From: Chthoniobacterales bacterium
GTDB lineage: Bacteria; Verrucomicrobiota; Verrucomicrobiia; Chthoniobacterales; UBA6821
DNA length: 64,000 nt
Assembly: GCA_019747735.1 (NCBI GenBank)
Contig: JAIEQL010000007.1
Span: 10,456 to 74,455, forward strand
Direction: 5' to 3'
The position numbers and the translations under genes are program-made. This document shows, in pieces, positions 12,439 to 43,734 of the stretch; positions within the stretch are counted from its first letter, which is position 1, and each line of letters starts with the position of its first letter. Below the pieces are notes generated by a model. It was given only the letters and a program-made list of their open reading frames with translations. It was not told the DNA's origin and did no database searches.

Positions 12439-13578
12439 TTATTGTTCTTGCCAGCTTAACATACTGTTATTTCCACCCACAGACATGACGACAATGATGC
12501 GATGAGTGACCCCATAACAAGAGCCAGAGCTATCAATACGACGTACGTTTCCTGTGATATCAAAATAATTTTTAAGAATGCTTTGTTGAAGTTGATTAGG
12601 GCCAATCAGTTTAATGGCATCGTCAATACTACTAAAAGGAACTCTTTTTCCAGAAATAGTATCAGGCTGATCGCACAACTTAATAAAAGTCTCCACTTGT
12701 TCTGGGGTGAGGCCAACGAGATCAATCAGCATATCTGGACTGCAAAACATAATATTAATTTTGCCAGGATTAAAAGTTGAGAAATATCTTTTCCATTGAG
12801 GCTTTGCTTTCATGACGGGAGCAAAACCCATCACCATGGCCATCTCTTGAGTATTAACAAAAGGAGCATTGGGTGGATAGCCATCTAATCCAATGGCCTC
12901 ATAATCGCCGCTTTTGGCGCCATGAGTTGAACGCAACATGGTAGGGCTTTGCCAGTCATAGAGTCCATCGATAGCAGTTTCTTGGTCTTTTTCTGAAACT
13001 CCCCAAGCTGTAAAGAGCCTTTGAAAGATAATGCGATCTGATTGTGCGAGCCAAATATTAGGATTGATGAATGCTGTTTCATTGTTGAGTTGGACCACAA
13101 AACTTTCTCCTTCTTTACTCGTAGGATCACCTTTCACTAAAAGTGGGTCGCCTGGTTTGATGTTGGTATTCATTCCCATGGCAATCCCGCTGAGAGCCAT
13201 TTGACGCGCACGGAAGACTCGTTCAGCGTGTGACTCTTCTTCTACCCAGTTATTGACGGTTTTTACCGTCAAGAGAAGAAGACCCGCTAGGAAAGCAATA
13301 ACCCAAAGAACCATGGGAAGGGCGAAGGCTCTAGAGTCTGTCCAAATGCTACTGCTGAGGCGCAGAGTGGCGTCGCTGTGATGCTCGTGTCCTCGAGTAT
13401 TTCCATATACACTGCGGTACTGCGCTTCTTGCTTCTTGCTCTGCATCCTGAGCAGCGCATTTGGGCCAGACTCTTTCATTTTGAAGCGACAGATTTTTTT
13501 AAATGTCCAAATGCTTGAAGTCATCGTGTTGCGATGACGAGTTAACCGAAGAGTGAGAACTGAAAACTTTTGTTTCAT
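12439..13578 (-). CDS. GspK-like minor pseudopilin with a repeat-derived N-terminal extension
   Basis: GspK-type N-terminus RAFALPMVLWVIAFLAGLLLL followed by a large periplasmic domain. The ORF start overlaps the gspJ-like stop (ATGA). About 80 extra N-terminal residues include the PE-A element. Confidence 0.65.
   Translation of the reverse strand: MKQKFSVLTLRLTRHRNTMTSSIWTFKKICRFKMKESGPNALLRMQSKKQEAQYRSVYGNTRGHEHHSDATLRLSSSIWTDSRAFALPMVLWVIAFLAGLLLLTVKTVNNWVEEESHAERVFRARQMALSGIAMGMNTNIKPGDPLLVKGDPTSKEGESFVVQLNNETAFINPNIWLAQSDRIIFQRLFTAWGVSEKDQETAIDGLYDWQSPTMLRSTHGAKSGDYEAIGLDGYPPNAPFVNTQEMAMVMGFAPVMKAKPQWKRYFSTFNPGKINIMFCSPDMLIDLVGLTPEQVETFIKLCDQPDTISGKRVPFSSIDDAIKLIGPNQLQQSILKNYFDITGNVRRIDSSGSCYGVTHRIIVVMSVGGNNSMLSWQEQ
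13333..13474. repeat. PE-A element inside the 5' part of the gspK-like ORF
   Basis: Termini agagtctgtccaaatgctactgctgagg (13333-13360) and cctgagcagcgcatttgggccagactct (13447-13474). The core gcgtcgctgtgatgctcgtgtcctcgagtatttccatatacactgcgg...ctgcatc is homologous to the acnA copy and to the 2050 copy. Confidence 0.85.
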
Positions 13579-14330
13579 CGTGCAGGCATTTTAAGGCCCG
13601 CTGGGGCTGGAGCTTTATTAAACTTTGGGTCTGACTGAGAGTTAGAATTCGTGACGTTAGGTGGCCTTATTGGCATGAAGGAAGAAAAAGAATTTTTAAC
13701 AAGAGCCGGAACATAAAAAATCGCCTCCACCATGCTTCTCATTCCAACAACTTCCATTTCAAGGCGGACTAACTGAGGTCTTCCAGCTCCTTGAGGCCAC
13801 TCATCAGACCATGTGCCGTTTTTAAAAAAACTCCAATGAGGTCTTTTTATTTTTGGTAGAAGAGTTACCCAAGTGTCCCCTTCATATAGCGTAGCTAATT
13901 CGGAACCTTGAATATTTTTAGGAACTCTCAAGATGGAAAAAGAACGTGTTTTGTCGTTGGCAGCTCGTGGTGAAAGGATCAGCGTTCCACCAGCAAGGCT
14001 GGCAAAACCAAATAAGCCTGTAGCATTTTGAAAATAGAGATCAGGAACTCCATTGTTGTTGGAAGCATTGTCGGTGTTTAAATAAATAGATCCATTAGCA
14101 GGGAGATTGAGAAGGGCATCACGTGTGAGGTGCAAAAAACCTTCGAGACGCCGCATCGTAAATTGCTCGATAAGTGCTTCTTTAGTAGACTCAATAGCAG
14201 CTGTGGAAATGGAGTAGAGCGCTCCTGCCAACAAGGCTAGAATAGTCATGGCAAGGACGATTTCTAGTAGTGTGAAGGCGGAATGCTTGGAACGACCATT
14301 GTCGTTGCAGTTGATAGCGACATTTCTCAT
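13575..14330 (-). CDS. GspJ-like minor pseudopilin
   Basis: Prepilin-type N-terminus KHSAFTLLEIVLAMTILALLAGALYSI. 251 aa. Overlaps both neighbours by 4 nt. Confidence 0.65.
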   Translation of the reverse strand: MRNVAINCNDNGRSKHSAFTLLEIVLAMTILALLAGALYSISTAAIESTKEALIEQFTMRRLEGFLHLTRDALLNLPANGSIYLNTDNASNNNGVPDLYFQNATGLFGFASLAGGTLILSPRAANDKTRSFSILRVPKNIQGSELATLYEGDTWVTLLPKIKRPHWSFFKNGTWSDEWPQGAGRPQLVRLEMEVVGMRSMVEAIFYVPALVKNSFSSFMPIRPPNVTNSNSQSDPKFNKAPAPAGLKMPAR

Positions 14331-14761
14331 GGACGATAAATAAGAATTTCAGCAGAGTCTTTTGTTTTTTTATTTTGAGCAGTAATTGTCAGGCGAGAAA
14401 TGCCCACTACCTCTTGATTGTTAGCGTTGTTGAGGGTAAGTGGGGTGAGGGATTCAGTGATAGCGATGCCGCTGCTAGTTTTAATAGTGCGGTCTCCTTC
14501 TAGTGGAGGATCGACCATGTTGTAAGCAAGGCGTGATTCTAGTTCCAGGCGGGAAAGTGCTCGTTCACGGGCTTCAATACAGGCTTCTGCCACTGATTCT
14601 AAGGCAATCACCAACCCTCCCACAGCGAAAGAAAAAACAGTGAGGGCTACTAGAACTTCGAACAAAGTAAAACCTCGTGCTCTCGCAAAGCCATGGTAGT
14701 TCGTCTCCCCGCCTCCGCGGGGAGAAGGTTGTAATTTGTGGTTCGTAGTTAAATGAGCCAT
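14327..14761 (-). CDS. GspI-like minor pseudopilin
   Basis: RGFTLFEVLVALTVFSFAVGGLVIALESV prepilin motif. 144 aa. The long leader contains a GC mini-hairpin (14705-14724). Confidence 0.65.
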   Translation of the reverse strand: MAHLTTNHKLQPSPRGGGETNYHGFARARGFTLFEVLVALTVFSFAVGGLVIALESVAEACIEARERALSRLELESRLAYNMVDPPLEGDRTIKTSSGIAITESLTPLTLNNANNQEVVGISRLTITAQNKKTKDSAEILIYRP

Positions 14762-14787
14762 GTCAAAAATTTATTTTATAGGATAGG

Positions 14788-14889
14788 AGAGTCTGATCAA
14801 AATGCGCTGCTGCGGAGGAGAGCAAGGCACGAGGCGAGCACCACAGTAATGTAGCTCTACGCCGCAGCAGTAGCATTTGGACAGACTCT
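14788..14889. repeat. PE-A element, short variant (102 bp), between the gspH-like and gspI-like genes
   Basis: Arms agagtctgatcaaaatgcgctgctgcgg (14788-14815) and ccgcagcagtagcatttggacagactct (14862-14889). The termini nearly match the 13333-13474 copy in inverted orientation. Core cacgaggcgagcac...gtaatg. Confidence 0.85.
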
Positions 14890-15323
14890 TACTCATCACG
14901 GGCGACTTGAGCAGTTATAGGATCAAACTTCATGGTAAAAGATGCTCCTTTTCCTGAAATTTGCAAACTGAGGGGATCACATATTCCTTCACTATTAAAT
15001 TGCCAGAGTTCATTAGCTGTGGGGGGGCGAAATTTTTTATCGTTAAAGCGCCTTATTTGAAGCTGCCAGCCTTCCGGAAGAAGATGGGAATCGGAGAGAG
15101 AAATAAATTTTGTTTCACCAGTAGTAAGTGCTTCTGAATGTGTTTTTTCAACCAAGGTAGCGATCGAATCTTGAATCCGGTCTACTTCTGTGTGATGCCA
15201 GGCATCAGCCATGTAAGGGGCGGCAGCAACCATCAAGATGGCAACAACGGCAAGGGCGATAAGAATTTCTAAGAGGGTGAAGCCGTTCTTTTTTTTCAAA
15301 ATGATAGATAGATTAAGTCTCAA
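14889..15323 (-). CDS. GspH/FimT-like pseudopilin
   Basis: KKNGFTLLEILIALAVVAILMVAAAP prepilin N-terminus. 144 aa. First gene of the minus-strand operon. Confidence 0.65.
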   Translation of the reverse strand: MRLNLSIILKKKNGFTLLEILIALAVVAILMVAAAPYMADAWHHTEVDRIQDSIATLVEKTHSEALTTGETKFISLSDSHLLPEGWQLQIRRFNDKKFRPPTANELWQFNSEGICDPLSLQISGKGASFTMKFDPITAQVARDE

Positions 15324-20724: not shown

Positions 20725-20762
20725 TGAATATTTTTTTGAACAGAGTTTATTGATTCTAAAGT

Positions 20763-20878
20763 GATGAAAGTTTGAGTGCTAGCAGTTTCAGTTTAATAGA
20801 TGCTTCGGGCTTTATTTTTTAAAGCGACCAAGCGCGAAGGTGACTCAAACTCAAACTAGAAATACTCAAACTTTCATC
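20763..20878. repeat. PE-C element (116 bp) in the murE-murF spacer
   Basis: Left arm gatgaaagtttgagtgctagcagtttcagttt (20763-20794). Right arm gactcaaactcaaactagaaatactcaaactttcatc (20842-20878). The centre, gcttcgggctttattttttaaagcgaccaagcgcgaagg, is homologous to the 32007-32120 copy. Confidence 0.85.
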
Positions 20879-20919
20879 ATGCCTAGTTTCATTTTTCTCA
20901 GATAAACAAACCAACAATA

Positions 20920-26877: not shown

Positions 26878-26945
26878 CTAGGAAGGGATATCTTTCCTAT
26901 TCGATTTGACATCCCTTGACAGTATTTAGTAGCGTACTGGGTCCT

Positions 26946-27818
26946 ATGAAACCCCAAGCGAAAAAGCTCGTTCAGTTTGATTGGGCCATTAAGACGCTCT
27001 TGAGACGAGAGGCTAATTTTCCCATTCTGGAAGGATTCTTATCGGAGCTGCTTCACACCACTGTGAAGATCGAGTCACTGCTAGAAAGCGAATCGAATAA
27101 AAGCCATTCTAAGGATAAATCAAATCGTGTTGATGTTTTTGCCAAGCTAGGAAATGGAGAGCGGGTGATTATTGAAGTGCAGTGTGAACGCCAGTGGGAC
27201 TTCCTTTCACGCATGTTATATGGAGTTTCCAAAGTGGTGGTGGAGTATCTCAAAGAAGGGGATTCCTATGGCGTGATCCCACGGGTCATTTCTGTCAATA
27301 TTGTCTACTTCGACTTAGGCCAGGGAGAAGATTACATCTACCATGGCACTACTCATTTTAAGGGTATTCACAAAAAAGACTTGCTTCAGTTGAGTGAAAA
27401 AGAAAAAGAGCATTATCCAGCTAATGTCAATCAGCTCTCTCATGTGTTCCCAGAATATTACGTACTCAAAGTCAGCGGATTTGATCTCCATGTGCGTGAT
27501 ACGCTTGATGAATGGATTTATGCTTTGAAGGAATCAGAAGTGAAGCCTGAGTTCAAAGCCCAAGGCATTCGTGAAGCCTCACAACAGCTGACTCTTCTCA
27601 ATCTTTCTGAGGAAGAACGGGCCGCTTATGATCGTTACATTGGCGATATGAGAGTGTCTCGAAGCACGTTGGAATCTTCTTTCAGTGAGGGGAAGGCTGA
27701 AGGCAAGGCTGAAGTTGTTCTCAACATGCATCAGTTGGGTTTGCCAATAGCTGAAATTGCTAAGCTTGCCAAACTTTCACTGGAACAAGTAGAAGGGATT
27801 TTGAAATTAGCAGCATAA
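26946..27818 (+). CDS. Rpn-family recombination-promoting nuclease / PD-(D/E)XK putative transposase
   Basis: PD-(D/E)XK core RVDVFAKLGNGERVIIEVQCE and a C-terminal helical tail with a KAEGKAEGKAE repeat (DUF4351-like). The ATG at 26946 is preferred over the TTG at 26916. Confidence 0.7.
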   Translation: MKPQAKKLVQFDWAIKTLLRREANFPILEGFLSELLHTTVKIESLLESESNKSHSKDKSNRVDVFAKLGNGERVIIEVQCERQWDFLSRMLYGVSKVVVEYLKEGDSYGVIPRVISVNIVYFDLGQGEDYIYHGTTHFKGIHKKDLLQLSEKEKEHYPANVNQLSHVFPEYYVLKVSGFDLHVRDTLDEWIYALKESEVKPEFKAQGIREASQQLTLLNLSEEERAAYDRYIGDMRVSRSTLESSFSEGKAEGKAEVVLNMHQLGLPIAEIAKLAKLSLEQVEGILKLAA

Positions 27819-27844: not shown

Positions 27845-30787
27845 TTACGCAGTAAGCAACTGCCTCAAAATAAAAGGCAAGATTCCTCCGTGTTTGTAAT
27901 ACTCAATTTCAATAGGAGTATCGATGCGGACTAGAACCGGAATCTCCTCGCTTTGCCCATTAGCCCTCGTGCATAACTCTACTGCTGACGCGCATTGCGT
28001 CGTCGCTCCAGTGCTCACTCCCTCGAGTACCTTATGTACACTTAGTTGCTGTGCGCTGGAGGCTTCTGGCACTGCATCGCCAGCAGCGAATTCTACAAGA
28101 GGTCTATTTTTTCTAGTGATGCGCAGGATTGCTTCCTGGCGAGGTTGGAGTTTTTCAGAGAGTCCTAAGAGATCGTAAGTTTCTGTCCCATTAAGGTTGA
28201 GGGATTGCGCAGAAATTCCTTCTAAAAACTGTAGTGGCAAGACCCCCATGCCAATCAGGTTGGAGCGATGAATTCGCTCATAGCTACTGGCAATGACTGC
28301 CCGGACGCCAAGGAGTCGTGTCCCTTTAGCAGCCCAATCACGGCTGCTCCCTGTTCCATACTCTTGCCCTGCAATCACCAGGAGAGGAGTTTTTTCTGCG
28401 GCATAACGCAGCGCAGCATCATAAATGCTCATGCGTGTCTCTTCTGGTTGATGAAGTGTTTCGCCTCCTTCCACCCCTGGTAGTATGAGGTTTTTGATGC
28501 GAACGTTTGCAAAAGTACCACGCGTCATCACACGATCATTGCCGCGACGGCTTCCATAGCTGTTAAAATCTTCTGCCTTGACGCCTTGCTCTTTTAAGAA
28601 AAGACCAGCAGGTCCTTGCTGCTTGATAGCACCAGCCGGAGAAATATGGTCTGTAGTCACGGAGTCTCCAAAGATTGCTAACGCACGTGCGTTTGTAATT
28701 TCTGGAATAGGCTCAGGCTTCATTGAGAAGTGTTCGAAAAAAGGTGGCTCCTGAATGTAAGTGCTCTTTTCGTTCCAGAGATAGGTAGCTCCTGAGGTTG
28801 AGGGAATCTCATTCCAGGCAGGATTGTGTGCAGCAAAGTCAGAGTAGTATTGCTGAAAAACTGCTGGTGAAAGGGCATCCTGTAGCGTTGCTCGAATTTC
28901 AGCGAGACTAGGCCAGAGATCGCGGAAAAAAACGGGTTGTTTATTTTTTCCAAAACCAACTGGTTCTGTTGCCAGGTCGATATTCACACGTCCTGCTAAG
29001 GCGAAGGCAACAACAAGTGGTGGCGACATCAAGAAGTTGGCCTTAATGGCAGGATGAATACGTGCCTCAAAATTACGATTTCCCGAGAGGACTGCAGCAG
29101 CAACCAAATCATGTTCTTGGATGGCTTTTTCTATTGAAGGATGAAGTGGCCCAGAGTTGCCAATACATGTTGTGCAGCCATAACCTACGGTTTCAAAACC
29201 GAGTTGATCCAAGTAGGATTGCAATCCTGTTTTTTGAAGATAGTGAGTCACTACTCGAGATCCTGGAGCCAGAGAGGTTTTGACAGTGGGATTGACTCTT
29301 AAGCCATATTCTACGGCTTTTTTAGCGAGTAGCCCAGCAGCTAACATAACGCTAGGATTGCTAGTATTTGTACAGCTGGTAATGGCGGCAATGAGAACGC
29401 TCCCATGATGAATTTCTAATCCATTTTCATGGAAAGGAGATTCTGGCATTTGTTTAACAGGATCCGGGGTGGGGCGATCTAAGATCATTTCCTGTTCATC
29501 ATGCGGAAGTAGTGAGGCTCCAGAAGAAAGAGAGAACCGCTCTTTGAGCAGTTTCTTGCTCTTGCCGTAACCACCTTCAGAAACATTTTTTTCAAAGAGT
29601 GTCTCCAATGTTGGTTTTAATTGAGAGAGTTCAATTTGATCTTGTGGTCGCTTAGGCCCAGCCACACTTGGTTTGACGCTGCCAAGATCGAGGGAAAGAT
29701 CCACGCTGTAATCAATGTCACCAGCTTGTGGCATGCCAAAAAGTCCTTGTGCTTTAAAATAATTTTCAAAAACGGCGCACTCTTCTGTACTGCGTCCTGT
29801 TGCCTTGAAATAAGCAACGGATTCTTGATCGACAGGAAAAATGCCCATTGTGGCTCCATATTCAGGGGCCATGTTGGCAATGGTGGCGCGATCGGGAGAG
29901 GTTAACTTTGCTGCCCCTTGGCCATAGAACTCAACAAATTTGTTCACTACCTTGGCAGCTCGTAAAAAGTGGGTCATGTGCAGCGCAAGGTCTGTGGCAG
30001 TGACCCCTTCTGCGAGTTCTCCTGTGAGATGGACTCCGACAACCTCAGGGGTTAGGAAATAAACAGGTTGGCCGAGCATGCCTGCTTCTGCCTCAATACC
30101 GCCAACTCCCCATCCAACAATACCCAGCCCATTGACCATCGTTGTGTGAGAGTCTGTTCCCAGCACGGTGTCAGGATAATAGAGTTCTCCTTGTGAGAGG
30201 GACTGGTGAAGGACTCCTTTTGCCAAATATTCTAAATTGACTTGGTGCACGATCCCAATTCCTGGAGGGACAATACGAAAGGTTTTAAAAGCTTGTTGTC
30301 CCCATTTGAGAAATTCATAACGCTCTCGGTTGCGCTGAAATTCCATTTCTAAGTTGAGGTCGATAGCATCGGCTCTTCCGTAGTAATCAACCTGCACAGA
30401 GTGATCGACCACCAGATCAACTGGCACCAACGGTTCTACAATCGAAGGATTGCCACCTAGTCGTAACACTGTGCTACGCATGGCAGCCAAGTCGACAAGG
30501 AGTGGAACGCCCGTAAAATCTTGCAATACGATACGCGCAACGACAAAAGGAACCTCCTTTGCTGCTGTTTTTTTGGCATTCCATTTCGCCAAGTCCATGA
30601 CATCTTGCTGAGTGATTTTGCGACCATCACAATTTCTTAAGACCGACTCAAGCACGACCCGAATACTAAAAGGAAGCCGTGAAATCGGCCCTGCACCTTG
30701 CTTCTCGAGTTCTGGTAACGAATAGAAAAACCCTTTTTTACCAGGAGTGATTTCAAAGGTGGAAAGAACGTCGAAAGGATCGGTCAT
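27845..30787 (-). CDS. acnA: aconitate hydratase A carrying a 49-codon repeat-derived insertion near the C-terminus
   Basis: [19 protein letters not shown] and SGNRNFEAR Fe-S ligand motifs. The ORF is 980 aa, and the excess length is accounted for by the inserted 49-aa segment. Confidence 0.93.
27959..28105. repeat. PE-A element (147 bp, 49 codons) inserted in-frame in acnA
   Basis: The DNA ctactgctgacgcgcattgcgtcgtcgctccagtgctcactccctcgagtacc...ctgcatcgccagcagcg is homologous to 13333-13474 (same orientation) and 2050-2195 (reverse). Imperfect terminal IR 27962-27987 pairs with 28079-28105. Confidence 0.85.
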
Positions 30788-30860
30788 GGGTAGTGGTGGA
30801 TTAAGGTTATTTAGAATGAAAATTCGTAACTACCAACGTAATCTTTAAGCGAAGAAATTC

Positions 30861-31017
30861 ACAGGGATAGAAGCGATTGAAGGGATGGCAGAAAAAAATG
30901 AATTTTCTTAAAAAGTTTCCTTCCCTTTTTTTCTTTGTGTTCTTTTGTGGCTATTTCTTATCCTTATTTTGAACAGTGATCCCACTTCTTCATCCCTTCA
31001 ATCGCTTCTATCCCTGT
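30861..31017. repeat. 157-bp element with a perfect 27-bp terminal IR between bcp and acnA
   Basis: acagggatagaagcgattgaagggatg (30861-30887) pairs with catcccttcaatcgcttctatccctgt (30991-31017). A solo arm fragment cttctatccctgt recurs near 63826-63838. Confidence 0.9.
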
Positions 31018-31028
31018 TAATAGTTTTT

Positions 31029-32006: not shown

Positions 32007-32120
32007 ATCAATCATTCATAAAAGTTTGAGTTATCAGTTTGACTATAAATAGGCGCTTCACGTTTTATTTTTAAAAATGCGCGAAGCGCGAAGAGGACTC
32101 AAACTCAAACTGGTAGCACT
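32007..32120. repeat. PE-C element (about 114 bp) between dgkA and the TPR gene (convergent)
   Basis: Left arm cataaaagtttgagttatcagtttgact. Right arm ggactcaaactcaaactggtagcactcaaactttct. Centre gcgcttcacgttttatttttaaaaatgcgcgaagcgcgaag. Confidence 0.85.
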
Positions 32121-32130
32121 CAAACTTTCT

Positions 32131-34413
32131 TCACTTTTCCCAAAGGAAATTATCTAGGCGCAACTTGCTAATTCTTGCTTGGGCTTCAGCTGCACGAGGC
32201 CCATTTTCAGCAGCAATTTGCTGATAGAGCCGAATCGCTTCACTCCATTGTTGCTGTTGTTCTAATAAACGAGCTGCCTCAAAAGCGGCCTTGTCGTGCC
32301 ATAGTGGCTCTGGTTCTTGCGAGGTATTGCTCTTCATCGCCTCATAATAAGCCGCTAGAGCAGCATCATTGTCTTTTAGTTTTTCTTCGATGAGTCCTAT
32401 TTTGCAGAGTGCTTGATTGCGCCAGTAAGCAGGGGTATCAGGTGTTTCGGCTAGTTGGCGCCAGACAGCAATAGCTGCTTGATAGTTTGCAGGATCCTTG
32501 GCTCCGAGCCCGCTGAGCGTATCTCCCTTGGCCATTTGGGCTGTTCTTTTTATTTCAAGAGGCGCTTCCTCTGAGGCTAAAATCTGATCATCAATAGCGA
32601 TAGCATCAAAAGGTAAAGCTTGAGCATTTTTTAAAGCCGCTTGCTCCAGACGTGCTTGCCAGAGGTCGGAGCCTGCCTTGCTACTTTGAGCGACTTCTTC
32701 AAGAAGCATGAGAGCATCGTCGATCGACTTGGAGTCCATACTGCGAGAGGCTGCTTGAGCAGCCAGGAGTAATGCTTGACGGCCTAATTCTGAAGAGGAT
32801 TCGGCTTTGCCCACCGTTTCAAGCTCCACGCGTGCCTCTCTAACATTACCAGAAGTTAATAATGCTTCTCCTAGTTTCATGCGCACCTCATTGGTAAAAG
32901 GGGAATTCGGATGGGTTTTTAAAAAAAGGTGTGCTGCTTGAATGACTTGAGCCGCACTGTTGCGGGTGCCTTTGTCACTATCGAGAATAGCAGTGTATTC
33001 TGCTTTTTCGGTAGTGCTTGCATTCTCTTGTTTGTCGGTAGCCGTGTTGGGAAAGCTAAGAGGGACTGTTTCTGATGAGGTTGCCATCATATGCACGAGC
33101 CCTTGATTGTAGAGGGCATCTGCAGCGAGATAGGAATCAAGAGAGGCGGCTTGTGTAAAGTCGTGTTCCGCTGCTTGGAGGTGGTTCAATGCAATTTCAG
33201 CTAGGCCGTGCTCAAAAGCATATTGTGCCTGCATAGCGGGAGTAAGATTGGTGTGATCATGAAGATAAGTAAGAGCACTGTTAGGGTCTCCTTCTGATAA
33301 TTTATTTTCAGCTAATTCTAACGACGCTTCTTCAGCAAGTGGGTGATGAGGATAAGTAGCTAGAAAAAAAAGAAGCAGTTGATCTGCCTGATCACGATGG
33401 CCTAACCGTCGCATCATCCGTGTGTAAGGAAGAAAGGCGTAAGAAGCACGCAAAGGTTGCGAGGTATCCTGGCTCCATCTAGAAAGCGAGCTCACGTCAT
33501 TGCTATTTTGCAAAAGTAAGAGTTGCTCGTATTGAGCCATTAATTCAGGGATGCGAGGCGACTTAGGATTTTCTTGAAGATACTTTTCTAACAATGGTTG
33601 GGCTTGTGCAGGTTGATGAAGAGCAATATCGCAAGCAATCATTCCCGAGAGAGTTGCTGAGGAGACCCAGTCGTTTTTCAAAGGAAGAGAGCTCCATCGT
33701 TGTAGGGCCTCTGAGGCATCACCTCTAGCCCAAGCAGCAAGAGCAAAGAGATAAGCGAGGCGTGGTTCTTTGAGCAGTTCCGGTTTTTGTTGCAAGAGTT
33801 CTTCGGCTTCTCCTGTGCGATGAAGAGCTAGTAGTAGGGCTACCCGTTCTTGTAGTGCTACGGCTCCCATGGATGAAGTCGTAGAGAGAGGCTCCAGTTC
33901 TTTCAGGGCTTGATCATATTCCTTATGATCTCGAGCAATACGTGCTAGGGCGATGTGAGTGGCATCACGGCAGACCTGTGGCAATCGAGGTGCGTTGAGG
34001 ATTTGTTCAAAGAGTTTTTGCGCTTCTGCTGAAGCTCCTTGCGCAAGCAGCGCTTGAGCTTTCCAAAATACAACCATCTCATCGAGCTTGTCCGTTTCTT
34101 GAGGGGTAAGATCACTTGAATTTAAGAGGGTGAGCGCCTCTTCAGGTTTGCCTTCTGTTAAGAGAATTTCTGCAAGCCTCAAGGCAATCGCTGGACGTTT
34201 TTTGGGATCAGTTTCTTGTTGTAGTTGGGTGCGTAAGATAGAAGTTGAGATTTGTGGCAAGTCTTCAGAGGCAGCATGAGCAGCAAGATCATTGTTAGAA
34301 GCAGTAGAGACCGTTGGAGTCAATGCTGCTTGGGAGTTGGTTTCTTGAGCAGGCGCTGATGCTAAAAAAACCACTAAGAAAAAAATGAGGGCAAGAATAT
34401 TATTTTTCATCAA
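32131..34413 (-). CDS. secreted TPR-repeat protein (760 aa)
   Basis: Signal peptide and a helical repeat character with Ala/Leu/Gln richness throughout. Overlaps the lpxI 3' end by 14 nt. Confidence 0.7.
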   Translation of the reverse strand: MMKNNILALIFFLVVFLASAPAQETNSQAALTPTVSTASNNDLAAHAASEDLPQISTSILRTQLQQETDPKKRPAIALRLAEILLTEGKPEEALTLLNSSDLTPQETDKLDEMVVFWKAQALLAQGASAEAQKLFEQILNAPRLPQVCRDATHIALARIARDHKEYDQALKELEPLSTTSSMGAVALQERVALLLALHRTGEAEELLQQKPELLKEPRLAYLFALAAWARGDASEALQRWSSLPLKNDWVSSATLSGMIACDIALHQPAQAQPLLEKYLQENPKSPRIPELMAQYEQLLLLQNSNDVSSLSRWSQDTSQPLRASYAFLPYTRMMRRLGHRDQADQLLLFFLATYPHHPLAEEASLELAENKLSEGDPNSALTYLHDHTNLTPAMQAQYAFEHGLAEIALNHLQAAEHDFTQAASLDSYLAADALYNQGLVHMMATSSETVPLSFPNTATDKQENASTTEKAEYTAILDSDKGTRNSAAQVIQAAHLFLKTHPNSPFTNEVRMKLGEALLTSGNVREARVELETVGKAESSSELGRQALLLAAQAASRSMDSKSIDDALMLLEEVAQSSKAGSDLWQARLEQAALKNAQALPFDAIAIDDQILASEEAPLEIKRTAQMAKGDTLSGLGAKDPANYQAAIAVWRQLAETPDTPAYWRNQALCKIGLIEEKLKDNDAALAAYYEAMKSNTSQEPEPLWHDKAAFEAARLLEQQQQWSEAIRLYQQIAAENGPRAAEAQARISKLRLDNFLWEK

Positions 34414-43682: not shown

Positions 43683-43734
43683 AAAAAAGGGGTCAGTCCG
43701 GGTATCCCGGGATACCCGGACTGACCCCTTTTTT
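43683..43734. terminator. PE-B perfect 52-bp palindrome acting as a probable bidirectional intrinsic terminator between lspA and the GNAT gene
   Basis: aaaaaaggggtcagtccgggtatcccgggatacccggactgacccctttttt is its own reverse complement. A GC-rich stem flanked by A6 and T6. It overlaps the last 14 codons and the stop of the GNAT ORF. Confidence 0.8.

Follow-up and report, generated by a model that had tools for sequence, protein, structure and literature searches.

How has a conserved enzyme of central metabolism come to carry 49 additional residues near its C-terminus, and what is the DNA that encodes them? The open reading frame (ORF) in question, named as the aconitate hydratase AcnA, lies in a 64,000-nucleotide stretch of DNA (hereafter the window; Table 1) from a MAG of the Chthoniobacterales (Verrucomicrobiota), in agreement with an earlier note on this DNA that had placed the genome in the PVC group. 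The same note had described 49 extra codons inserted in frame in the C-terminal region of AcnA, and the reading of the ORF confirms it: the protein continues from ...ILRITRKN into the block RPLVEF...CTRAN and then into a further 14 residues of the downstream flank. The extra codons occupy 147 bp (positions 27959-28105), through which the acnA frame runs without a stop codon, and the conserved C-terminal 37 residues stay in frame past the insert, leaving the ORF intact. An identical 980-aa AcnA is encoded on contigs assembled from five separate sequencing runs and also in one NCBI MAG, and the insert is therefore not an assembly artefact.

Such a block could have been gained by this lineage, or it could be an ancestral AcnA segment that other lineages have lost, for which the earlier note had looked to distant orthologues carrying a homologous segment. 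The 49 residues are missing from all 16 of the closest AcnA homologues aligned (70-82% identical, mostly 929-942 aa) and from the rabbit and human cytosolic aconitase/IRP1, where the flanking segments are joined by about 7 residues. Nothing in favour of ancestry was found; some related AcnA proteins are also unusually long, but their extra segments sit at other positions. The DNA of the block is moreover a dispersed repeat which occurs between genes as well, and the empty site that had been sought is present in the closest orthologue, P0002 (L008), which reads AGG AAA AAT GGG with a single AAT, whereas the filled site reads AGA AAA AAT (144 bp) AAT GGG. The homologue alignment, the empty site and the IRP1 structures together refute an ancestral segment, the probability of which is close to nil.

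The reading preferred here, to which a probability of about 85% is assigned, is that the 147 bp arose by a single insertion event, of a palindromic element that is transposon-like and non-autonomous and belongs to the family of RPE-1, the Rickettsia palindromic element reportedly described by Ogata et al. in 2000. A 144-bp element with terminal inverted repeats AGAC...GTCT would have duplicated the 3-bp target AAT on insertion, adding 49 codons, and would have landed in phase 0, making the duplicated AAT itself a codon. A full-length insertion of this type would cause no frameshift, because 144 plus 3 is a multiple of three. The extent of 147 bp proposed in the earlier note thus stands for the insert and has to be corrected for the element proper, which is 144 bp long and accompanied by a duplicated AAT. 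The sense strand of the element is the acnA coding strand, on which it specifies the 48 residues 895-942, and it is 73% identical to the Verrucomicrobial consensus.

Table 1. Features of the acnA locus and copies of the element in the window
Feature	Positions	Strand	Evidence
Host gene acnA, aconitate hydratase A of 980 aa	27845..30787	(-)	ORF; Pfam Aconitase and Aconitase_C
RPE-1-family palindromic element, 144 bp	27962..28105	(-)	nhmmer E 3.5e-35, with a family profile that itself included this copy; hairpin; absence from orthologues
Target-site duplication, upstream copy AAT (codon Asn894)	28106..28108	(-)	Filled against empty site
Target-site duplication, downstream copy AAT (codon Asn943)	27959..27961	(-)	Filled against empty site
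Second copy, 142-143 bp	13333..13474	(-)	nhmmer E 2.5e-25; hairpin z about -5.5
Third copy	2050..2195	(+)	nhmmer E 1.8e-22; hairpin z -4.2 to -5.1
Fourth copy, centre deleted	~14787..14890	(+)	BLASTN; nhmmer; alignment; hairpin z about -6

Four copies of the repeat are present in the window. Homology of the 147 bp to the second copy in the same orientation and to the third in reverse had been claimed from inspection of the letters, with the significance of that similarity left to a proper alignment; in a BLASTN comparison within the window the matches are significant, with E values of 3e-8 to 7e-11. Each of the four copies folds into one long imperfect hairpin (on whichever strand folds better, z is -4.6 to -6.3), none of 200 shuffled sequences folding as well, and the hairpins together with the ORF reading bear out the description of the acnA insert as palindromic, a multiple of three in length and stop-free in the acnA frame. 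The second copy has on one side the stop codon of a GspJ-like gene (13575) and on the other the earliest conserved residues of a GspK-like ORF (12439-13578), neighbours recognised by Pfam T2SSJ and T2SSK_1st; an open frame runs through it, but a different one from that of the acnA copy, and its flanking triplets do not match. The third is intergenic, with convergent genes on either side (an ORF at 600-2030 and mutL at 2203-4068). Also intergenic is the fourth, flanked by pseudopilin genes (14327-14761 and 14889-15323), which is 84% identical to the second copy over 55 nt by BLASTN, matches the profile over its 3' half (nhmmer E 1.2e-5) and shows a central deletion in the alignment.

To study the family more widely, 116 near-full-length copies, no two of them identical, were taken from the window, from MAG assemblies and from about 20 metagenomes. 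The loci were gathered by a core-motif pattern, run with an internal gap of 6-8 on the metagenome contigs, while the genome contigs gave 10 stretches from one gap variant, none of them from the window's own genome. Taking as genic any copy with a stop-free frame extending at least 50 codons on both sides, 61 of the 116 copies lie inside long open frames, a proportion that depends on the gathering pattern and is not a genome-wide estimate. All 61 genic lengths are divisible by three, with 58 copies of exactly 144 bp and the other three of 135, 135 and 141 bp, whereas intergenic copies are mostly 143 bp (13 copies), 144 bp (10) or 142 bp (3). Among 181 profile matches in 842 kb (the window and related loci, not de-duplicated), 81 are in long frames, 44 of them in the main sense frame and 18 in the main antisense frame. 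One phase is stop-free on the sense strand, as is one on the antisense strand in all consensus sequences, with a second antisense phase open in some. With a stop-free phase on each strand and a length that is a multiple of three, a sizeable fraction of genic insertions would therefore simply add a peptide; the rule for survival in genes may be put as 49 codons for element plus duplication, with at least one open frame per strand. The hosts are varied: across 63 host ORFs, 88 Pfam families are recognised, examples being PurK, IspG, AcrB, PurA, GspE and acetate kinase, as well as UvrD, PheS, NadE, photolyase, SMC and Obg. For the insert peptides themselves Pfam holds no family, and Rfam, searched with the window at the gathering score and with the insert at E<=1, gave no match.

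The hairpin of the acnA element is very stable as RNA (-62.5 kcal/mol, z -4.6), and it could be imagined that the insert never appears in the mature protein, either because acnA is a pseudogene or because the hairpin is taken out or skipped in the RNA or during translation. This is a very improbable account, given an intact ORF whose conserved C-terminus remains in frame and the lack of any Rfam ribozyme or intron match. Furthermore, the genic copies, although stop-free by construction, all have lengths divisible by three and the intergenic ones mostly do not, a difference expected only if the inserts are translated. For RPE-1 in Rickettsia, translation of the inserts has been reported, guanylate kinase being one instance (PMC2229807). 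The reading frames thus argue for an acnA insert that is probably translated. An intein or intron was also considered and rejected, with 49 residues being too small, Rfam giving no matches and intergenic copies being dispersed.

As for where such a peptide would lie, an AlphaFold2 prediction from an alignment of 17 sequences was of low overall quality (mean pLDDT 45.8) and is used only for the flanking strands and the low-confidence insert; in it the insert (pLDDT about 25) falls between strands 885-891 and 946-953. By this model and the IRP1 structures, the element sits in aconitase domain 4, in the short turn that joins its final two beta-strands, where the added peptide is presumably tolerated as an extra loop, probably at the surface. 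It has also been considered that the peptide was co-opted for a selected new function in AcnA and other hosts, for instance as a binding loop. The insert remains intact, lineages about 75% identical in AcnA have an older acnA insertion in common, and the insert peptides are conserved across hosts, but the same peptide occurs in 88 unrelated Pfam families and lineage P0005 has retained merely 6-9 nt of the shared older insertion with its ORF unharmed. Variability in genic copies is equal at the three codon positions (entropy 0.58, 0.556 and 0.554), from which it follows that the conservation of the peptide reflects that of the DNA and not selection on the peptide. A selected peptide domain was dropped on this last ground, and co-option in general is judged improbable.

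The flanks of the copies bear on how the element moves. An exact 3-bp repeat flanks 34 of the 116 copies, against 8.2 expected by shuffling and a maximum of 17 in 2000 shuffles, and no copy has a 4-bp repeat; the exact 3-bp repeat is thus kept by only 29% of copies. The duplicated triplets are AAT, ATT and AGT in the subfamily with AGAC...GTCT ends and TTA, TGA and TCA in a second subfamily with GAAC...GTTC ends and TNA duplications, which is read mostly on the antisense strand. Being small, coding for no transposase and possessing both terminal inverted repeats and a target-site duplication, the element fits the definition of a MITE. In the Chthoniobacterales the repeat may be moved in trans by a DDE-type transposase making 3-bp staggered cuts, for which the IS5/Harbinger type, making 3-bp TNA or TWA duplications, is a candidate. 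A search of about 0.9 Mb of related loci for an autonomous element, or for a transposase sharing the ends, used fuzzy 21-nt ends and paired 11-nt ends 400-4000 bp apart and found none. Six ends turned up singly, along with a single pair whose triplets match; this pair was discarded as an autonomous partner, its right end being a known 144-bp copy and its left end being taken as another copy.

The failure to find a partner is one reason to weigh spread without DDE transposition, whether by an HUH/Y1 enzyme that recognises hairpins (as in IS200/IS605 or REP), by hairpin-mediated recombination or by template switching. The entire element forms one long hairpin. Terminal repeats have been mapped in about 120 copies, and the outer stems differ among copies but remain complementary within each, a pattern that fits recognition of structure rather than of sequence and that would be unusual if a single transposase recognised fixed ends. 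On the other hand, the flanking triplets vary among copies and yet match from left to right, at 3 bp and never at 4 bp; one AAT at the empty acnA site has become two at the filled site; and across phyla the terminal 25 nt show strong conservation (80-92%). Insertion of the IS200/IS605 type uses a fixed target and leaves no duplication. Spread of this kind is accordingly regarded as unlikely, with perhaps one-in-several odds, and transposition with duplication of a 3-bp target is retained as the preferred mechanism.

The earlier note had likened the insert to the selfish in-frame palindromes of Rickettsia, a likeness upheld by its lineage-specific presence and dispersed family, and one which the profile comparisons show to be true homology to RPE-1 and more than analogy. 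An hhalign comparison of 44 Verrucomicrobial insert peptides with 29 RPE1-annotated proteins aligned 48 of 48 columns with no gap, at a probability of 99.0% (E 2.5e-18). With a Verrucomicrobial DNA profile, nhmmer detected copies in R. rickettsii (2.5e-14), Ca. Tisiphia (8.1e-21) and the Wolbachia wFol (2.1e-24), each of exactly 144 bp and with terminal 25 nt that are 80-92% identical to the Verrucomicrobial consensus, although the central ~94 bp of the Verrucomicrobial element are merely 44-60% identical to these copies. Two of the three Rickettsiales copies examined have matching flanks (ATT/ATT and AAT/AAT). The only recurrent family match of the peptides is NCBIfam TIGR01045 (RPE1, a 48-residue model), found for 16 of 44 peptides at E<=1 with a best E of 5.9e-4; the family consensus matches positions 1-48 of 48 (14.6 bits, E 0.025), and the Wolbachia relative reaches 3e-6. 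No Verrucomicrobial peptide tested attains the curated cut-off of 30 bits, and the acnA peptide of the window taken alone has no TIGR01045 match at all. With a bridging profile, dozens of proteins annotated as RPE1 are recovered (E 1e-13 to 1e-7), with Legionella among the RPE1-annotated hosts; host diversity was taken from an exhaustive search of representative proteins, a word-index search having given 53 candidates, nearly all small ORFs.

When compared to RPE-1, the element shares its length of 144 bp (within the range of about 105-150 bp that characterises RPE-1), its palindromic form, an open frame of 48 codons whose peptide aligns over its full length with RPE1 proteins, near-identical termini (AGACYTCTTTC...GAAAGARGTCT) and a dispersal both between genes and in frame within unrelated housekeeping genes, at what are predicted to be loop positions. 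It differs in its host, a Chthoniobacterales lineage from groundwater and lake metagenomes and not a member of the Rickettsiales, in peptides that fall below the RPE1 cut-off, as a result of which the proteins are annotated as hypothetical, and in the second subfamily with GAAC...GTTC ends. A restriction to Rickettsiales, which fails for this host, stems from the name and history of RPE-1 and not from its structure. A 2007 review called RPEs Rickettsia-specific and gave their target duplication as unknown (PMC2229807), a 2024 review treats them as the one case with unusually frequent in-frame insertion, and neither names an RPE-mobilising enzyme. The closest named relatives of the Verrucomicrobial peptides are two small ORFs (P0138 and P0139) of wFol, the Wolbachia of Folsomia candida and hence an Alphaproteobacterial endosymbiont, whose 144-bp DNA copy shares 70% identity with the Verrucomicrobial consensus; the published discussion of WPEs relates them to RPE-4, -6 and -7 and not to RPE-1 (PMC3767692).

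Other families of small repeats resemble the element in part. Coxiella QMITE1, ERIC and Correia/NEMIS are likewise small, with terminal inverted repeats and target duplications, and in-frame fusion to host ORFs is on record for some MITEs of the QMITE1/ERIC/Correia type (PMC10969869; PMC2229807). No sequence relation to them was seen, however, many of them duplicate TA, and in-frame insertion is occasional among them, as opposed to 61 genic copies of the 116 sampled here. PARCELs are coding DNA with dyad symmetry which spreads between distant taxa (PMC2996958), but they are tandem units of 25 residues in ORFs of unknown function, and identity with the single 48-residue insertions found here in conserved enzymes was rejected on that account. 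REPs, which are also palindromic repeats dispersed around the genome, are extragenic, 20-40 bp long and tagged by GTAG or CGTC, and they do not duplicate their target (PMC3733652); membership of the REP/RAYT group was rejected for an element of 144 bp that is often intragenic and has a 3-bp duplication.

These comparisons place a known element family in a new phylum, with RPE-1 relatives in the Verrucomicrobiota having invaded dozens of housekeeping genes. RPEs are the textbook case of selfish DNA inside protein-coding genes, and the phenomenon is no quirk of reductive intracellular genomes. The balance tips somewhat towards a broader view, in which RPE-1 is not Rickettsia-specific but a frame-neutral, transposon-like element that has crossed phyla (Rickettsiales, Legionella, Verrucomicrobiota), probably by horizontal transfer, and looks recently active in some Chthoniobacterales, since copies there are highly similar and many duplications are intact. 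If activity is indeed recent, young copies with intact 3-bp duplications might allow the RPE transposase and insertion mechanism to be traced. For annotation, the family explains odd loops of 45-49 residues in Verrucomicrobial enzymes and many small hypothetical ORFs on intergenic copies.

A second, unrelated palindrome family (GGGGTCAGTYC) has also been observed in the genome of the window, inserted in frame in aroE and mutL, which suggests that this Chthoniobacterales lineage, like Rickettsia, is unusually tolerant of palindromes in coding regions.

The minus-strand acnA gene encodes an aconitate hydratase in which 49 extra residues occur near the C-terminus. The exact protein is also encoded in five separate sequencing-run assemblies and in one NCBI MAG, which excludes an assembly artefact, and since this MAG is named Chthoniobacterales bacterium, the genome is Verrucomicrobial. 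When the window protein was aligned with 16 of its closest homologues (70-82% identical, mostly 929-942 aa), the block was a clean gap in all 16, and approximately 7 residues connect the flanking segments in cytosolic aconitase/IRP1 of rabbit and human, bearing out the in-frame 49-codon block described in the earlier note. The homology it proposed between these 147 bp and two further stretches of the window, one in the same orientation and one reversed, has likewise been upheld, with significant DNA similarity. The palindromic nature of the repeat is also confirmed, as each of the four window copies folds into one long imperfect hairpin; z-scores range from -4.6 to -6.3 on the better-folding strand, with no shuffle folding equally well. 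The closest insert-free orthologue (P0002, locus L008) has the empty site AGG AAA AAT GGG, compared to AGA AAA AAT (144 bp) AAT GGG in the window, and thus the element proper is 144 bp long with AAT on each side. Insertion occurred in codon phase 0, the element supplying residues 895-942, so that the duplicated AAT reads as Asn894 and Asn943.

Features of the window discussed in the text (positions in the window)
Feature	Position	Strand	Remarks
acnA ORF	27845-30787	-	980 aa
RPE-1-like element in acnA	27962-28105	-	144 bp, AGACC...GGGCT, AAT both sides
Second copy	13333-13474	-	142-143 bp, same orientation as acnA copy
Third copy	2050-2195	+	reverse relative to acnA copy
Fourth copy, centre deleted	~14787-14890	+	found in follow-up
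GspK-like ORF	12439-13578	-	
aroE ORF (shikimate dehydrogenase)	5614-6606	-	
aroE palindrome	6079-6195		117 bp, near-perfect, in frame
mutL ORF	2203-4068	-	
50-bp palindrome, mutL copy	2801-2850		in frame
50-bp palindrome, intergenic copy	43684-43733		terminator-like
Transposase gene	26916-27818	+	PD-(D/E)XK_2 'nuclease family transposase', Pfam PF12784, E 2.2e-25
Further repeats	30857-31021; 20758-20879; 32069-32137; 5564-5593		

The second copy, whose length is not a multiple of three, sits towards the 5' end of a GspK-like ORF. The ATG of this ORF and the stop codon of the GspJ-like gene preceding it share bases (ATGA). No stop interrupts the element in this frame, which differs from that of the acnA copy; translation of the ORF may in fact begin at 13313 (ATG, MVLWVIAF...).

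The sense-frame peptide has a 48-residue consensus, RLLSKLAyADEVQGVDGAQKLSVQeLLDASSTGATKQFAAEVEFgKKS, and the NCBIfam model TIGR01045, 'palindromic element RPE1 domain' (RPE1, Rickettsia palindromic element 1), is likewise 48 positions long. The consensus matches it over positions 1-48 of 48 with an E of 0.025, a weak but specific match. Among 44 individual Verrucomicrobial peptides, 16 match at E<=1 (best 5.9e-4), all below the 30-bit cut-off, and only one other family among 18,950 models was matched, by a single peptide (E 0.12). The peptide profile also finds small ORFs in the Wolbachia endosymbiont of Folsomia candida (wFol), one scoring 3e-6 against RPE1, and a bridging profile of these ORFs recovers, with E-values of 1e-13 to 1e-7, dozens of RPE1-annotated proteins of R. 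rickettsii, R. honei, spotted-fever-group Rickettsia, Ca. Tisiphia and Legionella. Direct profile-profile comparison of the 44 peptides with 29 RPE1-annotated proteins gave a probability of 99.0% (E 2.5e-18, 48 of 48 columns, ungapped). At the DNA level, the Verrucomicrobial profile matches RPE-1 copies from wFol (2.1e-24), Tisiphia (8.1e-21) and R. rickettsii (2.5e-14), which, like the Verrucomicrobial element, are exactly 144 bp long and bounded by AGAC...GTCT; they are flanked by the triplets ATT/ATT, AAT/AAT and ATG/AAT. Against the Verrucomicrobial consensus, the terminal 25 nt of these three are 80-92% identical, whereas the middle is 44-60% identical. Peptide and DNA evidence together make the Verrucomicrobial element a diverged RPE-1-family member and not a mere analogue. 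The acnA insert is therefore an RPE-1-family element in a phylum new for RPE-1, in agreement with the earlier suggestion of an RPE-like selfish repeat in a PVC-type genome. The near-identity of the ends across phyla, perhaps a new finding, suggests horizontal spread and a shared transposase.

RPEs have been termed 'Rickettsia-specific', with their target duplication given as '?' (2007 review, PMC2229807), and were later reported in all Rickettsia and Wolbachia sequenced by then (2013 paper, PMC3767692), while a similar mechanism in other prokaryotes has been called 'conceivable' (2024 MITE review, PMC10969869). For Verrucomicrobia, no description of such RPEs or MITEs was found in the open-access literature and preprints. 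In database annotation the range of RPE1 already extends beyond Rickettsia, given the copies in wFol (L125), which among named relatives are nearest to the Verrucomicrobial ones, and the RPE1-annotated or RPE1-like small ORFs in Legionella norrlandica and L. anisa (P0315, P0324).

A core-motif scan located the element in further Verrucomicrobial MAGs and some 20 metagenomic data sets, several of them from lakes and groundwater as judged by contig names. A nucleotide profile built from the collected copies, those of the window included, gave 181 matches in 842 kb of loci and window, the window itself accounting for four. The flanks of the element are identical between contigs from the MAG SMAG_U8253 and the IMG set Ga0155638 (L010-L018 vs L064, L081, L092, L093, L114), and their proteins bear both HLB... 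and OHE... accessions (RIFCSPHIGHO2_12_FULL_41_10), so they appear to be assemblies of one or nearly one genome. Identical copies were removed because of this overlap, leaving 116 near-full-length ones, whose proportions reflect collection by core motif and are not genome-wide. With genic and intergenic calls made mechanically from stop-free extent, 61 copies lie inside a stop-free frame with >=50 codons on both sides (58 of 144 bp, two of 135 bp, one of 141 bp), 21 lie near a gene end, including the acnA copy (19 of 144 bp, two of 143 bp), 30 are intergenic (13 of 143 bp, 10 of 144 bp, three of 142 bp, four of other lengths) and four, all of 144 bp, are at a contig edge. Length is thus divisible by three in 61 of 61 copies inside long frames, while most intergenic copies are not so divisible. 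On the sense strand only phase 0 lacks stops; on the antisense strand phase 1 is stop-free, and sometimes phase 2. Before de-duplication, long frames contain 81 of the 181 matches, 44 in the main sense frame and 18 in the main antisense frame; copies labelled 'another sense frame' keep the sense frame at both ends, with compensating indels mid-element. Variability among genic copies is equal across codon positions (entropy 0.58, 0.556 and 0.554), so peptide conservation mirrors DNA conservation and not peptide selection. Head-to-tail arrays occur at L096 93-409, L021 11506-11691 and L023 1336-1520, within open frames on the antisense strand, their units spaced at 138 or 144 bp, distances that are both divisible by three.

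In 34 of the 116 copies the element is flanked by the same three bases on both sides, against a mean of 8.2 and a maximum of 17 in 2000 shuffled pairings; at least two of three agree in 68 copies, and a 4-bp match was found in 0 of 116. Copies ending in AGAC...GTCT are flanked by AAT, ATT or AGT, and a GAAC...GTTC subfamily by TTA, TGA or TCA. This pattern, along with the filled and empty acnA sites, indicates a true 3-bp target-site duplication, the signature of a staggered cut by a transposase, an enzyme that we infer; a search of the collected loci for an autonomous partner or transposase found none. The outermost stems vary in sequence among copies yet remain complementary inside each copy, a feature compatible with a less likely alternative, spread through a structure-recognising mechanism. 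The frame-neutral architecture of 144 + 3 bp, with its 3-bp duplication, may be new.

Matches of 63 host ORFs to 88 Pfam families (E<=1e-5) mark the element-bearing frames as real genes, among them PurK (split by the insert), IspG, AcrB, PurA, GspE, acetate kinase, UvrD, PheS, NadE, photolyase, SMC and Obg. When 1.84 billion cluster representatives were searched exhaustively with a profile, the sense-frame peptide was found in 435 proteins at E<=1e-3 (155 at E<=1e-10), many of the 435 being long with an internal match; ten checked from among the top-scoring long matches belong, where named, to the RIFCSPHIGHO2_12_FULL_41_10 / Chthoniobacterales lineage. The extent of gene invasion in Chthoniobacterales may be new.

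In related lineages AcnA has been struck at three or four sites (columns ~206-235, 520-567, 723-770 and 1049-1097), and aconitase appears, from these alignments, to have been invaded repeatedly in this clade. Extra segments are seen in P0013, P0022 and P0015 (columns 206-235) and in P0020 and P0006 (columns 723-770). Against the profile of 44 peptides, which contains those of the window and P0009 and makes their own scores circular, weak matches were obtained for P0020 at site 3 (E 0.038, full length) and P0013 (0.0035, partial profile). The insertion common to P0009 (144 bp) and P0020 (135 bp) at the second site is evidently older, since these proteins share only ~75% identity with the AcnA of the window and the flanking triplets have diverged. 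The P0005 gene (L130), ~90% DNA-identical to that of P0009 (L006), keeps only ATG AGA CCT CTT GGT at this site, namely the flanks and 6-9 nt matching the element start, AGACCTCTT. By comparison of L130 with L006, L007 (P0020) and L131 (P0004), this remnant reflects an in-frame deletion of 138 bp, for which two CTT repeats are the possible endpoints, and such inserts can therefore be lost again.

Within the protein, the acnA insert falls between predicted strands 885-891 and 946-953 with a pLDDT of ~25, in a model that is poor as a whole and only indicative. The IRP1 alignment has a short connection at this point and P0022 a 9-residue insertion three residues downstream, which is consistent with a tolerant turn, where the insert is presumably surface-exposed.

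Other palindromes occur in the window. That in aroE has the ends GGGGTCAGTTC...GAACTGACCCC and coincides exactly with ~30 extra residues relative to the solved structure 1nvt (query 122-157 vs chain 123-129); it is a second in-frame family, showing no apparent resemblance in sequence to the RPE-1-like element and no NCBIfam match. Two copies of a 50-bp palindrome, AAAAAGGGGTCAGTCC...GGACTGACCCCTTTTT, share 92% identity; one falls within the linker of MutL that joins DNA_mis_repair and MutL_C, where it encodes ...KKGSVPGSRDPGTDPF..., and the other lies between convergent ORFs. The window contains the core GGGGTCAGTYC 7 times, compared to 0.89 expected. A distance of 27 bp separates the end of the transposase gene from the acnA 3' end; no link between this gene and the RPE-1-like element was seen. 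Among the further repeats, one immediately 5' of the acnA start has inverted arms of 31 nt, 97% complementary and separated by 103 nt, and another repeat family, containing ACTCAAACTCAAACT, is found in at least three intergenic places.
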